DNA from: a virus
UHGV virus genome: UHGV-0098135
DNA length: 20,243 bases
Direction: 5' to 3' (one strand)
The translations under genes were made by a program, and so were the position numbers. Positions 2,199 to 8,520 of this stretch are shown in pieces; the first letter of the stretch is position 1, and each line of letters begins with the position of its first letter. Below the pieces are notes generated by a model. That model saw nothing but the letters and a program-made list of their open reading frames with translations. It made no database searches and was not told the origin of the DNA.

Positions 2199-2229
2199 TT
2201 TTTTGCAAATCACAAAGTCCATTTAATGA

Positions 2230-2251
2230 GCCTCGCGATGCGGGGCTTTTT
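2230..2251 (+). terminator. Intrinsic terminator 1 downstream of the lysis cassette
   Basis: GC-rich hairpin GCCTCGC-GAT-GCGGGGC followed by TTTTT. Confidence 0.5.
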
Positions 2252-2258
2252 GCAATAA

Positions 2259-2283
2259 ATGCGTACCGCAACGCATGTTTTTT
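2259..2283 (+). terminator. Intrinsic terminator 2 (tandem) downstream of the lysis cassette
   Basis: Hairpin ATGCGT-ACCGCA-ACGCAT followed by G and TTTTTT. Confidence 0.5.
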
Positions 2284-2398
2284 ACACCGAACCTGCCCCT
2301 TTGGAATGGGCCTTTGAGGATACCAGTTAGTGCTGGCGAGCCTCGGTGGGCTGGTTTCCTGTGCGGCAAAGGTTCATTTCAAAGAGTAGGTACACGCT

Positions 2399-2896
2399 AT
2401 GAAATCATTAACCCTCTTCAATCAACCAATTCGTATCGGTGAAGATGGCATGATCTGCCTCACTGATATGTGGAAAGCCAGTGGTAAAAGTGAATCTGAA
2501 TCGCCTTACCACTACCTGCGAAACAAGCAGACCAAAGAGTTCTTAGCCGAGCTGGAGAAAAACCACGAATCTGTGGTTTTTACTGAGCGCGGTGTACACG
2601 GTGGAACATATGGCGGGAAGTTTGTTGCTTACGATTATGCGGCTTGGTTAAACCCCGGGTTCAAGTACGCGGCCTATAAAGTCCTCGATGACTACTTCAC
2701 CGGAGAACTTCAGCATCGCAACAGCTTAAGTGCGCAGCTCAACATGAAATGTCATGAGTTTGACCAGAAGAAAGACATGGCTAGCTTCTGCGGACAAGGG
2801 CTGGCAGCATGGCGCTATACGAAGCCAGTGTTGGTCGCTGAGATTAACTCCATGGCTAACCAGCTGCAGATTACGATCCCCGGGCTTCCGGGATGA
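2399..2896 (+). CDS. Accessory protein with putative KilA-N-like DNA-binding domain
   Basis: 165-aa ORF with ATG start. N-terminal segment (IRIGEDGMICLTDMWKASGK...YLRNKQTKEFL) resembles the KilA-N pattern from memory. Located in the variable slot between lysis and terminase genes. Confidence 0.55.
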   Translation: MKSLTLFNQPIRIGEDGMICLTDMWKASGKSESESPYHYLRNKQTKEFLAELEKNHESVVFTERGVHGGTYGGKFVAYDYAAWLNPGFKYAAYKVLDDYFTGELQHRNSLSAQLNMKCHEFDQKKDMASFCGQGLAAWRYTKPVLVAEINSMANQLQITIPGLPG

Positions 2897-3156
2897 GTGA
2901 TCGTGTCATTGAATGCGCCTCCAGAGCGGGGCGCGACTTCTCAGAGTTCATGAAAGGCGAGAAGGGCATGATGGAAGCATTGGCCTCGGTGGATGAGTTT
3001 GGCGAGCAGCTGCGCCTCAACGGCTGTGTCAATCATCACTTTGTTAGCTACATGATGCGGAACTCGATCATGCAGGCATTCATGGACATGGCAAAAGCCG
3101 AGAGGAAAGAAGAGCGCCGGCGTAAGCGAGCGGAAGCAAAAGCAAAAGTGAAGTAG
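2893..3156 (+). CDS. Hypothetical protein, 87 aa, with strongly basic Lys/Arg/Glu-rich C-terminal tail; translationally coupled to the upstream gene
   Basis: ATGA start/stop overlap with the preceding ORF; C-terminus AKAERKEERRRKRAEAKAKVK. No function recognised. Confidence 0.55.
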   Translation: MSDRVIECASRAGRDFSEFMKGEKGMMEALASVDEFGEQLRLNGCVNHHFVSYMMRNSIMQAFMDMAKAERKEERRRKRAEAKAKVK

Positions 3157-3450
3157 CCATTACAAAGCCCATTTACGGGTGGGCTTGATAATGAAACCGG
3201 AATTTATTCTGGGTAACCAGTTACGGCAGTACAGCGAAACAACCCAAGCCAGTAAGTGGGGAAATAACACTGGCAGCCACTGAAAGATGAACCTCCTGCC
3301 TTATGGCAAAAAAGATTCTTTGTGGTGGCGGACTGATGGAAAGACATCGGTTATTGCAGAGGCCATTCAATGAGTGGTCTCGACAATGGCTTATACCCTG
3401 CACGGGATAACTTAACTGATATCCCTTTTAACGGATAAACGGAGCCAACA

Positions 3451-3693
3451 ATGGCAGAGATTATTCCCATGACTGAAGAACAGAAATTCCAGTTAGAGAT
3501 TTACAAACTGGTCATGAACCAGAACGCAGCCGCAGAAGAAGCATTTCAGTTCATTGGCACTGACGAGCTGAAGCTTGAGCTATTCAAAATTCACTTCCAG
3601 TCAGGCGGCGCTAATTCGGATATCACGATCCGCACATTCGAAGCGGTACGTAAATCGAAGGAGGCGTTAGACCTGTTCACCGCTGGAGTGTGA
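3451..3693 (+). CDS. Hypothetical protein, 80 aa
   Basis: ATG preceded by GGAG (ACGGAGCCAACAATG); acidic, probably helical; stop is 1 nt before the next ATG (coupled). Confidence 0.6.
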   Translation: MAEIIPMTEEQKFQLEIYKLVMNQNAAAEEAFQFIGTDELKLELFKIHFQSGGANSDITIRTFEAVRKSKEALDLFTAGV

Positions 3694-3694
3694 T

Positions 3695-4084
3695 ATGGCT
3701 AAGGCCAAATGGCACAAACTCCCGGCGTTCACCATTCCGCTGTTTCAAAGTGCACATGTCTACCTCGCAACAACCAGAGAACAGTTTCAGCACGCTGATA
3801 AATTCCTTGGCGGCAGCGGGGATGAGAAGCCATTCAATCTTGGGTTTGCAAGCAACTATGAAAACACTGATACGGGTGAGCGATGCTATCTGATTGGAGT
3901 ATTCGATCAGCAGATCGCTACGCTCGTTCATGAGTGCGCCCACGTCTGCTTTTACGTTTGCTCTGATGTCGGCGTGACGACAAGGCCTGAAGATGCCAAC
4001 GAGACGTACTGTTACATGCTGGACAGGATGGTTAATCACTTCCTGCCATTCATTCAGGAGAAACAAGATGTATCACTGGAATAA
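3695..4084 (+). CDS. Hypothetical protein, 129 aa, with HExxH motif (LVHECAHV) and a downstream Glu; putative minimal zinc-metallopeptidase-like protein
   Basis: Starts 1 nt after the upstream stop. HECAH followed about 20 residues later by PEDANE resembles a gluzincin-type metal site. Function inferred from the motif only. Confidence 0.55.
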   Translation: MAKAKWHKLPAFTIPLFQSAHVYLATTREQFQHADKFLGGSGDEKPFNLGFASNYENTDTGERCYLIGVFDQQIATLVHECAHVCFYVCSDVGVTTRPEDANETYCYMLDRMVNHFLPFIQEKQDVSLE

Positions 4085-4356: not shown

Positions 4357-4845
4357 ATGGCAGCACCAAAGGGCAACCGATTTTGGGAGGCCCGCAGTAG
4401 TCATGGGCGAAATCCTAAATTCGAATCGCCTGAGGCGCTGTGGGCTGCTTGTTGTGAATACTTCGAGTGGGCTGATGATAACCCGCTATGGGAGGGTAAG
4501 GTATTTTCATATCAGGGAGAAATAATTAAGGCTAATGTCCCTAAGATGCGAGCCATGACTATTTCAGGATTGTGTACCTTCCTTGATATCACCAGGCAAA
4601 CGTGGGGAACCTTCCGGTCAATGGAAGGTTTTTCTGACGTCACATCACGAGCGGAAGACATCATCTACGACCAGAAATTCTCTGGCGCAGCCGCTGACCT
4701 TCTCAACGCTAACATCATCGCCCGTGATTTGGGCCTCAAAGAGCAGTCGCAAGTTGAAGACGTGACACCTGATAAGGGAGATCGCGATAAGCGGCGCTCT
4801 CGTATCAAGGAGCTATTCAACCGTGGAACTGGACGCGATTCTTGA
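4357..4845 (+). CDS. Terminase small subunit (P22 gp3-like)
   Basis: 162 aa, the size I recall for P22 gp3, and I recall the N-terminus [39 protein letters not shown] as P22 gp3. Sits immediately upstream of the large terminase. Confidence 0.85.
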
Positions 4846-6319: not shown

Positions 6320-8520
6320 TGGCTGATGATAGAAAGATGGCTGACTGGCATCGCAAGGTGCTGTGCAACTTTGATAATGCCTGGTCAGCAACGCAGGATA
6401 TGCGTGAGCAGATTATTGAGGCTCAACGTTTCGTCCGGGTATCCGGCGCACAGTGGGAAGGCAGCACAAACGCTGGTTACTCATTTGATGAAGGCAGGTT
6501 TGAGCATTACCCGCGCTTTGAACTGAATAAGGTTTCCCGTGAATGTGATCGCATCATTGGCGAGTATCGACAGAATCGCATCAGCGTTAAATTCAGGCCG
6601 AAGGACGATAAGGCATCGGAAGCGTTAGCCGAAAAGATGAACGGCAAATTCCGCGCTGACTATCAGGAAACATCCGGTGGCGAAGCGTGTGATAACGCAT
6701 TTGATGATGCTGTAACGGGCGGATTCGGTTGTTTCCGCATGTGTGCCGATTACGAAGATGAAATGGATCCGAGTAACGAGCAACGCCGTATAAGCCTTCT
6801 TCCTGTTTACGACCCAGCGACATGCGTCTTCTTCGATCAGGACAGCAAGCAATATGACCGCTCTGATGCTATGTGGGCTATGGAAATGTTCTCCATGACG
6901 CCTAAAGCGTTCGAGGCTGAATACCCTGACTCCATCGCGGCAAGTCTTTCTCGTGATGACACTGGTACTCAGTATGACTGGTCAACGCCTGATGCCATCT
7001 ATGTTGGACGCTACTACGAAGTTCGCATAGAGAAGGTGAAGCTCACGGCGTGGCGCAACCCTGTCAGCGGAGAAACGGCAATCTATGATGAAGAGCAAAT
7101 CAAAGATATTGTCGACGAGCTGACCGATGGCGCATTCGAACTGATTGGCGAGCGGACAGTGAAGAAACGCCGCGTTTATTGCGGCCTTCTGTCTGGCGCT
7201 GAATGGCTGGAAGAACCGAAGCGTATTCCGGGCGAACATATTCCTCTCATCCCGGTATATGGGCGTCGCTCATTTGTTGATAATCAGGAACGAATCGAAG
7301 GCCACGCAGCAAAAGCGATGGATGCACAGCGTCTTGAGAACCTGATGGTTTCCATGATTGCAGATAACGCTACTCAGGCGGGCGGTGATGGCATTCCTAT
7401 CGTGGATGTTGATTTCATTCCCGGTCCATTAATGAATCACTGGGCAGAGAGGAATAAGAAAAGACCTGCAGTTCTTCCCATGACCAGCAAGAAGGACAAA
7501 AACGGAACAGTCATTTCAGAAGCTCAGGTTGCTGGCTGGACACCTCCGACACAAATGCCTCCTGCTCTTGCCGGGCTATTGCAGTACACCGGAACGGCTA
7601 TTCAGCAAATTACAGGTGCGTCGCAGCTTGAGAACATGCCGAGCAACGTCGCTACCGATACCGTTGATAGCATCTTTAACCGGATGGACACGCAGTCCTA
7701 TATCTACATGGACAACATGGCTAAATCCATGCGCCGTGCTGGCGTCGTGTGGCTTTCTATGGCTCGTGAAGTCTATGGCAGTGATACGCCGATGCGTATC
7801 GTTAATGAGGACGGCAGCGATGACGTGGCGCTGATGACTGGTGAAGTGGTTGACCGTCAGACAGGGCAGGTTATCGCGCTTAACGACCTTTCGCAGGGTA
7901 ACTATGAAGTGACTGTCGATGTTGGTCAGTCGTTCGCTACTCGCCGTGATGCAACGGTTAAGTCGTTACTTTCCATGCTGGCACTTATCCCACCAGGAAC
8001 GCCGAAGCACGACCTTGTGTCGTCGATGATTCTCGACAATATGGACGGCGAAGGGATGGACGACCTTAAAGAATACAACCGCAATCAGTTGCTTCTGTCT
8101 GGAGTTATCAAGCCGAGAACACCAGAAGAACAGCAGATGGTTGAGCAGGCAAAACAACAACAGGCCAGTCAGCCAGATCCGGCTATGGTTGCAGCGCAAG
8201 GTCAGCTTCTTGCTGGTCAGGCTGAATTGCAGAAAGCGCAGAACGAACAGGCAGCCATTCAGGTTAAAGCATTCCAGGCACAGACTGATGCTCAGGTTGC
8301 AGCGGCAAACGTTGTGAAAATCCTCGCATCTGCTGATAGCCAGCAGAAATCTGATATCCGCGAGGCTCTGAAACTGCTCGGACAGTTCCAGCAACAGCAA
8401 GGAGACAATGCCCGTGCTGATGCAGAGCTTGTCCTGAAAAGTCAGGCACAGGGCCATGCGCAGCGCATGGACATCAGCAGCATCCTGCAAAAATCAACTC
8501 AGCAACAACCACAGCAGTAA
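6319..8520 (+). CDS. Portal protein (P22 gp1-like) with long Gln-rich C-terminal helical extension
   Basis: Start chosen at ATG 6319 ([15 protein letters not shown]...), which aligns with the recalled P22 portal N-terminus MADNENRL...; ATG 6316 is an alternative and the track's 6304 is a TTG. Internal segment IPGEHIPLIPVYG matches the recalled P22 portal IAGEHIPIVPVFG. C-terminal ~140 aa is Q/A-rich. Confidence 0.88.
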   Translation: MADDRKMADWHRKVLCNFDNAWSATQDMREQIIEAQRFVRVSGAQWEGSTNAGYSFDEGRFEHYPRFELNKVSRECDRIIGEYRQNRISVKFRPKDDKASEALAEKMNGKFRADYQETSGGEACDNAFDDAVTGGFGCFRMCADYEDEMDPSNEQRRISLLPVYDPATCVFFDQDSKQYDRSDAMWAMEMFSMTPKAFEAEYPDSIAASLSRDDTGTQYDWSTPDAIYVGRYYEVRIEKVKLTAWRNPVSGETAIYDEEQIKDIVDELTDGAFELIGERTVKKRRVYCGLLSGAEWLEEPKRIPGEHIPLIPVYGRRSFVDNQERIEGHAAKAMDAQRLENLMVSMIADNATQAGGDGIPIVDVDFIPGPLMNHWAERNKKRPAVLPMTSKKDKNGTVISEAQVAGWTPPTQMPPALAGLLQYTGTAIQQITGASQLENMPSNVATDTVDSIFNRMDTQSYIYMDNMAKSMRRAGVVWLSMAREVYGSDTPMRIVNEDGSDDVALMTGEVVDRQTGQVIALNDLSQGNYEVTVDVGQSFATRRDATVKSLLSMLALIPPGTPKHDLVSSMILDNMDGEGMDDLKEYNRNQLLLSGVIKPRTPEEQQMVEQAKQQQASQPDPAMVAAQGQLLAGQAELQKAQNEQAAIQVKAFQAQTDAQVAAANVVKILASADSQQKSDIREALKLLGQFQQQQGDNARADAELVLKSQAQGHAQRMDISSILQKSTQQQPQQ

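Follow-up and report, generated by a model that had tools for sequence, protein, structure and literature searches.

A conserved leader RNA pairing with the Shine-Dalgarno sequence of a KilA-N gene and of other exchangeable genes in P22-like and lambdoid phages

The subject of this analysis is a two-gene cassette at positions 2399-3156 of the UHGV virus genome UHGV-0098135, together with the spacer upstream of it; the whole stretch of 20,243 nucleotides, referred to below as the window, comes from a P22-like (Lederbergvirus-type) Escherichia coli phage or prophage and corresponds to its late region. An earlier note, made from the sequence alone, had described this cassette as a KilA-N-like protein followed by an overlapping 87-aa partner behind two tandem terminators. 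The most informative feature of the locus, overlooked by that note, is a conserved leader that lies between the terminators and the start codon and sequesters the ribosome-binding site (RBS) of the KilA-N gene. The KilA-N/partner pair consists of ordinary accessory genes, annotated since phage HK620 and nothing new in itself; the novelty lies in the control module, an apparently undescribed family of cis-regulatory leaders within a known category, placed on known protein families. Searches of the literature found no description of this leader module. The features of the cassette and its spacer are as follows.

2228..2253, + strand: T1, a predicted intrinsic terminator just after Rz, identified by folding (GAGCCUCGC-GAU-GCGGGGCUU, then a U-run)
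2259..2283, + strand: hp2, a hairpin (AUGCGU-ACCGCA-ACGCAU, then GUUUUUU) that is also predicted terminator T2, identified by terminator scan and folding
2285..2290, + strand: element a (CACCGA), the 5' strand of the alternative pairing P1, covarying with a'
2291..2391, + strand: long imperfect leader hairpin of 101 nt, with 40 bp in the minimum free energy (MFE) structure and -48.7 kcal/mol, identified by folding and a covariance model
2343-2348, + strand: element a' (UCGGUG), on the 3' side of the apical internal loop, pairing partner of a
2399..2896, + strand: KilA-N + ORF11CD3 protein of 165 aa with an ATG start, homologue of HK620 hkbK
2893..3156, + strand: 87-aa partner protein, phrog_875, a three-helix bundle and homologue of HK620 hkbL

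The leader, its alternative fold and the terminators

The 200-nt spacer after Rz holds T1, hp2 and then the leader hairpin, whose lower stem in the window pairs 2291-2316 with 2367-2391 and whose 3' arm includes the Shine-Dalgarno (SD) region of the KilA-N gene (AAAGAGUAGGU, 2381-2391). Folding z-scores for this hairpin were -3.5 to -3.8. A covariance model, R1, was built from 12 type-B sequences only, with the window variant (type A) outside the training set; it recovered the window copy at 2289-2401 (52 bits, E ~3e-9) and variants A, C, D, E, F and G at 41-82 bits, always at full length and ending at the start codon. The outermost helix of the alignment, in which columns 9-14 pair with columns 168-175 (CCUUU with AAAGG), is part of helix 1, which is 96.7% paired, so that the conserved structure pairs the SD with an anti-SD of CCUUU type some 90 nt further 5'. 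Separate MFE folds of at least seven divergent variants gave the same long hairpin with the SD paired. The 3' arm without exception terminates in the SD, whose spacing from the ATG is fixed.

Pairing within the hairpin has been preserved through substitution. Standard pairs occupied 97% of cells, compared with 39-54% when partners were slid by 1-3 columns, and double (both-side) changes were present at 28 of the 31 pairs. Arms were also paired without any alignment, across 14 variant classes sharing less than 85% identity: the mean energy was -33.4 kcal/mol for cognate combinations of 5' and 3' arm and -20.9 kcal/mol for non-cognate ones, a difference reached by none of 20000 permutations (p about 5e-5). 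The mRNA strand was favoured over its complement by the G-U pairs and by the R1 scores (133 vs 23 bits). These results show that the leader is a conserved RNA structure, which is predicted to be cis-regulatory and to act as a translational gate.

Several other ways of reading or detecting the structure were unsuccessful. RNAalifold applied to a plain MAFFT alignment of the divergent variants did not recover the hairpin because of misalignment, a problem solved by building the covariance model from one subfamily. Searches against Rfam 15, which includes the C4 antisense RNA and isrK, returned only tRNAs at the gathering thresholds, with chance-level miRNA-like hits (E<=10) for the window and HK620 leaders. 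An RNA thermometer is unlikely: leader hairpin stabilities range from -33 to -53 kcal/mol across variants, and melting at physiological temperatures is not expected of hairpins this stable. A 55-aa open reading frame (ORF) at 2275-2442, with its ATG inside hp2 and out of frame with the KilA-N gene, is not conserved and is probably no leader peptide, because HK620 and P22 have no ATG at that place and the L052 type stops early.

A second, mutually exclusive pairing is also maintained by covariation. Element a comprises the 6-8 nt immediately 5' of the hairpin, and its complementarity to a' covaries across at least 10 sequence versions (CGAGAG/CUCUCG, CCCGAG/CUCGGG, CCAAGAG/CUCUUGG, ACAGAA/UUCUGU, CCCAGAG/CUCUGGG, CUCAGAA/UUCUGAG, CAAAGA/UCUUUG, GAAAG/CUUUC and others). 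Cognate a/a' duplexes averaged -9.96 kcal/mol against -6.27 kcal/mol for non-cognate duplexes, which again none of 20000 permutations reached (p about 5e-5). P1 is topologically incompatible with the full hairpin; it was present in the MFE structure of the nascent RNA, truncated after a', in 10 of the 14 variant classes and in none of the 14 full-length RNAs. This suggests that P1 is an alternative fold of the leader, adopted earlier or when the hairpin has been opened.

Upstream of the leader, both of the tandem terminators claimed by the earlier note are present, and with them goes its point that the genes need either their own promoter or antiterminated read-through, as the upstream terminators imply. 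T1 has a GC-rich stem of 7-9 bp at 2228-2248 followed by UUUUU, and of 65 distinct related regions, 61 have a T1-like terminator no more than 95 nt 5' of the leader; it comes in 36 sequence versions, and their pairing is kept through compensatory changes. The hp2 hairpin, whose stem (ATGCGT/ACGCAT) spans 2259-2276, is found in 64 of these 65 regions with varying stems (GCGC/GCGC, CGCGC/GCGCG, TGCGCTT/AAGCGTA, ATGCGT/ACGCAT), at just 10-25 nt from T1, and is followed by a U-run only in the window-type variant. By structure, each being a GC-rich stem-loop directly followed by a U-run, T1 and T2 are predicted intrinsic (Rho-independent) terminators. No sigma-70-like promoter was found by a scan of positions 2199-2398 of the window.

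A reading of hp2 as a direct-repeat operator (GCGCAT-N5-GCGCAT) was rejected: the ATGCGT/ACGCAT and TGCGCTT/AAGCGTA variants keep inverted, not direct, symmetry, and a hairpin or inverted repeat is preferred because inverted symmetry alone is kept across the variants. The hp2 cores are CGCG or GCGC (e.g. ACGCGCAT...GCGCAT), and hp2 also precedes Rha- and HNH-type genes. Mbp1, the best structural relative of the KilA-N fold, binds the MluI box ACGCGT, and it would be pure speculation to propose hp2 as a candidate DNA site for KilA-N proteins.

The block of T1, hp2 and leader is not confined to the KilA-N gene pair. A scan of viral contigs for the 3' arm plus SD, together with the R1 search, found it directly preceding Phage_pRha+ORF11CD3 genes (60 loci) and also before several KilA-N architectures, P22_AR_N+ORF11CD3 proteins, ANT/KilAC proteins, Rha with other C-termini, partner-like+T5orf172 proteins and HNH_3+AP2 endonucleases. 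Within this one slot, ORF11CD3 is found C-terminal to three different modules (Rha, P22_AR_N and KilA-N). P22-like, HK97-like and Shiga toxin (Stx) phages have the cassette after Rz and Klebsiella phages inside the tail cluster, and it is always co-oriented with the late genes. In the Klebsiella phages vB_Kpn_RAH1 and ST11-VIM1phi8.1 (L004 2001-2755 and L005 1743-2755, respectively), T1, hp2, leader, KilA-N gene and partner stand between the major tail protein and tape-measure genes, and the presence of the entire cassette inside the tail gene cluster indicates that it moves as a unit. Extra leader copies were seen at L082:1119-1226, L009:2572-2680, L131:3124-3216 and 8118-8201, and L079:478-592, before HNH_3+AP2 or P22_AR_N+ORF11CD3 genes. 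Of 5426 complete E. coli genomes, 1239 contain all or part of the window-type spacer.

In P22 itself (L214, NC_002371), R1 matched 39534-39646 (52.1 bits) before rha. The annotated rha start at 39575 falls inside this leader, and the homologous ATG at 39644-39646 is in the same frame and 23 codons shorter. RefSeq features named 'Rha family transcriptional regulator' in E. coli (H89-H92) overlap the leader likewise, and the annotated starts of P22 rha and of these E. coli genes are probably over-extended into the leader.

The KilA-N protein and its partner

The two ORFs of the cassette, at 2399..2896 and 2893..3156, lie exactly where the earlier note had placed them and are both real genes, with the stop TGA of the first (2894-2896) overlapping the start ATG of the second (2893-2895) in an ATGA sequence. 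An N-terminal extension of the 165-aa ORF is excluded because of an in-frame TAG at 2387. The KilA-N-like N-terminus that had been proposed is borne out by a Pfam profile match far above chance (PF04383, E=1.2e-15, 57.6 bits against a gathering cut-off of 23.8, residues 9-101, profile positions 8-106 of 107). The accompanying description of this module as typical of antirepressor- or Kil-type proteins overlooked that the C-terminal half is ORF11CD3 (PF10549, E=6e-13, 49.3 bits against a cut-off of 25, residues 109-161), and ANT/KilAC (PF03374), P22_AR_N (PF10547) and P22_AR_C (PF10548) gave no match in the 165-aa protein at E<=1. Domains of these last three types are present in other genes behind the same leader. 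From this domain content, an ORF11CD3 C-terminal half in the absence of ANT/KilA-C, P22_AR_N and P22_AR_C, the protein is classed as a KilA-N member of the 'Bro network', a term for domain-swapping phage proteins (PMC10111431), and as neither P1-KilA-type nor P22-Ant-type.

The KilA-N domain is modelled with an APSES/Mbp1-like alpha+beta fold, for which the top structural match is the Mbp1 DNA-binding domain and the next is Bqt4. The 165-aa protein is most plausibly a DNA-binding protein of Mbp1/APSES fold, as predicted from this model, and its helical ORF11CD3 tail probably mediates oligomerisation. For a host takeover, antirepressor or Kil function, as had been suggested, no evidence was found.

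The partner matched phrog_875, annotated 'unknown function', over positions 1-85 of 85 (E=3.4e-54). Its AlphaFold model is a three-helix bundle with a predicted local distance difference test (pLDDT) score of 92.8, of which the last helix (48-86) carries the basic EERRRKR...K tail and the C-terminus ends ...ERKEERRRKRAEAKAKVK. The earlier description of a separate, translationally coupled 87-aa protein with a basic tail is upheld, its homologues being mostly stand-alone; the binding of nucleic acid that it proposed for this tail is conjectural. There was no match in Pfam, NCBIfam, PADLOC or PDB, and fold searches returned generic helical bundles only. Homologues form 138 clusters at 90% identity, nearly all of 83-87 aa and from Enterobacterales. 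The family is very narrow: a search of 1.84 billion proteins yielded only 22 representatives at E<=0.001. Their conserved core reads ECASRxGRDFSxFxxGEK ... QLxxxGCVN ... basic EERRRKR. A Cys2-His2 metal site (C8, C45, H48, H49) was considered and set aside; C8 and C45 are invariant, and H48 and H49 are each Tyr in some homologues.

A partner-like N-terminal domain is also fused to T5orf172/MUG113 (GIY-YIG-like) in proteins that stand alone in the slot (hhalign probability 94%, E=8.7e-8). The partner is a mobile domain of the Bro network and the co-expressed companion of some KilA-N genes; heading T5orf172 nucleases as well, the domain might be a new nucleic-acid-targeting module of that network. 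In one metagenomic protein, P0005, partner sequence up to ...EERRRKR continues, at a common CGTAAGCG stretch, into the C-terminal half of Rz (LQVAATCAK...); this reflects either misassembly or a recombinational deletion between the partner and Rz genes.

P22-like, HK97-like and Stx phages commonly carry the gene pair, which was surveyed across 92 loci encoding the partner; in all 92 the ORF ending at the partner start is a KilA-N gene. The usual upstream gene is the 165-aa KilA-N+ORF11CD3 form, nearly always with the 4-base overlap. In a second architecture, found in HK022, mEp234, Klebsiella phage ST11-VIM1phi8.1, Scandinavium, Raoultella and Trabulsiella, a KilA-N+P63C gene of 242-251 aa (268 aa as called at one locus) ends 2 bases before the partner ATG (TGA-tc-ATG). 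Between the two forms, the KilA-N domains share only 23% identity. No recognisable SD was found at the partner junction in either architecture, and termination-reinitiation is therefore a likely source of the partner; the two proteins may in addition interact. An obligatory complex or an antidote role for the partner is not supported.

Predicted mode of expression and competing explanations

On balance, the cassette is probably a self-contained accessory unit of the lambdoid/P22-like late operon that is doubly gated, by terminators and by the SD-sequestering leader. T1, and in the window T2 too, would stop ordinary RNA polymerase right after Rz, such that mainly Q-antiterminated late transcription would reach the genes. 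The completed leader hairpin, by pairing the SD with its CCUUU-type anti-SD, would leave the mRNA translationally closed at equilibrium. P1 would form only before the 3' arm has been transcribed, or with the hairpin open, giving a transient open fold on the nascent RNA. Other possible opening routes are a factor or processing, e.g. cutting of the long stem by RNase III, for which the lambda N and cIII leaders provide an analogy. The partner would then be made by termination-reinitiation at the ATGA overlap. The products of the slot would most plausibly be DNA-binding regulators or antirepressor-like proteins that evolve under diversifying selection, are used late against the host, satellites or competing phages, and would damage the lysogen if produced there. 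That the same module precedes many alternative Bro-network genes argues for their products being functional analogues, and conflict products that would harm the lysogen are consistent with a double lock and with alleles being replaced in a single slot.

A broader proposal, put forward tentatively and with some doubt, is that the T1-hp2-leader unit may be an undescribed portable translational gate with two exclusive covarying folds, P1 early and the hairpin at the end. Its opening would await a specific signal, for which RNase III processing, ribosomes loading co-transcriptionally on Q-antiterminated transcripts, and a factor from phage or host are candidates; the genes under its control would be exchangeable conflict genes (Rha, KilA-N, Ant-type, T5orf172, HNH-AP2) in lambdoid, P22-like and Klebsiella phages. 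One terminator-plus-leader unit precedes many Bro-network genes, P22 rha included, whose functions have been obscure for decades, and it offers a testable handle on the timing and mode of their expression. It also explains the mis-annotated starts that reach into the leader in P22 rha and the E. coli 'Rha family' genes, and it defines a genomic slot for the swapping of conflict genes that may aid in finding antirepressor, anti-satellite or defence-related functions.

Several points weigh against a doubly gated late cassette. Termination at T1 and T2, dependence on Q and translational repression are predictions. Some variants carry -10-like hexamers (TATAAT, TACAAT) after hp2, and HK620 has a full promoter there (TTCACA-16-TATTAA); because of these boxes, a promoter of their own is possible for those variants. 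KilA-N genes of 173, 180 and 181 aa occupy the same slot without a partner gene, and a functional KilA-N/partner partnership is accordingly not required. No reported function for HK620 hkbK/hkbL or their close homologues was found in the records and literature searched. None of 500 shuffles reached the observed covariation values, a statistic that is inflated because related sequences were used and their alignment had been made to fit the structure of the model; the slid controls, the single-sequence folds and the test of cognate against non-cognate arms mitigate this inflation and do not remove it.

An alternative held to be unlikely is that the cassette is a moron whose own promoter, situated between T1 and the leader, would drive expression in the prophage for the benefit of the lysogen (e.g. 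in BstA-like defence or superinfection), with T1 as an insulator. The strong terminator directly upstream in nearly all copies would suit this, as in the terminator-promoter modules of Gifsy antirepressors, as would the fixed place of the -10-like hexamers in several variants. BstA is itself a KilA-N-containing prophage defence protein, and PADLOC gave a domain-level match of the 165-aa protein to one candidate system, PDC-S22, alone (E=1.1e-8, residues 60-90). However, the PADLOC BstA model was not matched, and the 165-aa protein has no BstA-like C domain. The window has a U-run in place of the -10-like segment and no sigma-70-like site, the T1-hp2 interval is just 10-25 nt, and hp2 is kept as a hairpin and not as a fixed -35/-10 sequence. 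The SD-sequestering hairpin and the constant co-orientation inside late operons likewise speak against constitutive expression from the prophage. Less probable again is a kil/anti-kil (toxin-antidote-like) pair, in which the KilA-N protein would be toxic and the small basic partner would neutralise or tune it. KilA of phage P1 is lethal when expressed, heavy gating would suit a toxic product, and the partner stands directly behind a KilA-N gene in every locus surveyed, with tight translational coupling in two different architectures. Against this, the KilA-N genes without a partner and the partner-like domain fused to T5orf172/MUG113 with no KilA-N protein present show that the two are separable, and a specific antidote is hard to reconcile with partner-preceding KilA-N proteins that have only 23% identity and different C-terminal domains. 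The resemblance to a type II toxin-antitoxin pair also fails on obligate co-occurrence, and no toxin or antitoxin family was matched, PADLOC models included.

The upstream block might instead be a DNA flank, i.e. a recombination or homing junction, of a mobile homing-endonuclease-like cassette, with palindromes that are incidental or act at the DNA level. This is judged very improbable, even though nuclease-type genes (HNH_3+AP2, and T5orf172/MUG113 of GIY-YIG type) share the slot, boundaries of mosaicism are seen both at the ATG and in the intergenic region, the cassette occupies different genome positions (after Rz and inside tail clusters) and some phages hold several copies. A DNA flank would conserve sequence and not pairing, whereas double changes have preserved the helices in at least 14 classes that are less than 85% identical, G-U pairs are tolerated on the mRNA strand only, and the 3' arm invariably ends in the SD at its set distance from the ATG; RNA and DNA-flank roles could nevertheless coexist. 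The remaining possibility, that the two ORFs are one frameshifted gene, is refuted. In its favour, a few database proteins (P0001, P0002, P0003 and P0005) are longer than the partner or fuse it to ORF11CD3-like sequence, and the phrog_129 profile has 273 positions, of which the 165-aa query covers 3-174 only. However, these fused entries are single-contig frameshift, read-through or chimeric artefacts. Consistent fusion among homologues, which the earlier note had named as grounds for abandoning its view of a pair, was looked for, and nearly all of the partners found were instead separate polypeptides 83-87 aa long. Behind two different upstream genes the partner recurs with its stop/start geometry conserved, and it folds confidently alone.

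Related systems and genomic surroundings

The direct homologues of the window pair are HK620 hkbK/hkbL, with 96.5% DNA identity, the same position between Rz and terminase and the same 4-base overlap; the leader is type A in the window, with a U-run after hp2, and type B in HK620, and there is otherwise no difference in kind. The HK97 gp73 region, HK022, mEp234 gp58/gp59 and 'kilA' of Stx phages 2851 and 1717 are related to this pair. P22 rha shares with the window gene its slot after gene 15/Rz1, an ORF11CD3 C-terminus and the T1-hp2-leader block, with an almost identical type A leader. It differs in having Rha and not KilA-N as its N-terminal module and no partner gene behind it. According to work attributed to Henthorn and Friedman (1995), rha is reportedly inhibitory to phage growth in hosts deficient in integration host factor (IHF). 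The window protein shares its KilA-N N-terminus with P1 KilA and with fungal APSES-Mbp1 proteins, Mbp1 and then Bqt4 being its top fold matches, but unlike P1 KilA it has no KilA-C/ANT domain and lies outside any kilA-repL replicon.

In concept, the arrangement of a Bro-network gene with a structured RNA at its RBS matches P22 sar-ant, P1/P7 c4-ant, P4 CI-eta, N15 CA and Gifsy-1 IsrK-anrP, in which antirepressor-type genes are silenced post-transcriptionally by structured RNA near the RBS. Those systems, however, use trans- or cis-antisense RNAs or processed small RNAs, whereas the window leader is an intramolecular hairpin. The microRNA-size 24B_1 precursor hairpin of Phi24B (HM208303), reported to affect an antirepressor gene, is unrelated, with a best R1 score of 5.9 bits. 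A LexA-controlled antirepressor module as in Gifsy phages was also rejected; the architecture differs, and no LexA-box-like sequence was seen on reading the region.

Phage hairpins that sequester an RBS are known from T4 e, soc and I-TevI, from the lambda N leader and cIII, where RNase III is involved, and from the kinetic folding of the MS2 maturation gene. In these cases too a long-range stem occludes the SD, and P1 resembles their kinetic or processing-dependent opening. Unlike them, the window has no evident late promoter inside the hairpin, and its leader is a mobile, exchangeable module before many unrelated genes.

The records closest to the window are JEP4, phiv205-1, E212 and CUS-3. 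The KilA-N/partner cassette is located after the lysis genes and before the terminase genes, among the following features.

1-489: Q antiterminator (Pfam Phage_antitermQ)
581-736: tRNA-Asn (GTT) and tRNA-Thr (TGT), between the Q gene and the holin
978-1301: holin
1258-1734: endolysin
1731-2198: Rz, with Rz1 embedded
3451-3693: DUF2560 gene
3695-4084: 129-aa ORF, phrog_1365 (unknown function)
4357-4845: small terminase TerS (gp3 family), followed by large terminase TerL, portal and the rest

HK620 and P22 have the same gene order, and P_R', qut and tR' are annotated there. The Asn-GTT/Thr-TGT tRNA pair sits inside the leader of the late operon. Directly 3' of the partner stop, at 3164-3186, there is a 9-bp GC-rich hairpin (AAGCCCAUU-UACG-GGUGGGCUU) without a U-run, and the spacer at 3157-3450 is mosaic among related phages. 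The 129-aa ORF at 3695-4084 contains an HExxH motif (LVHECAHV), with SprT-like and aKG-HExxH models matching at sub-threshold level only, and may be a small metalloprotease-like protein.

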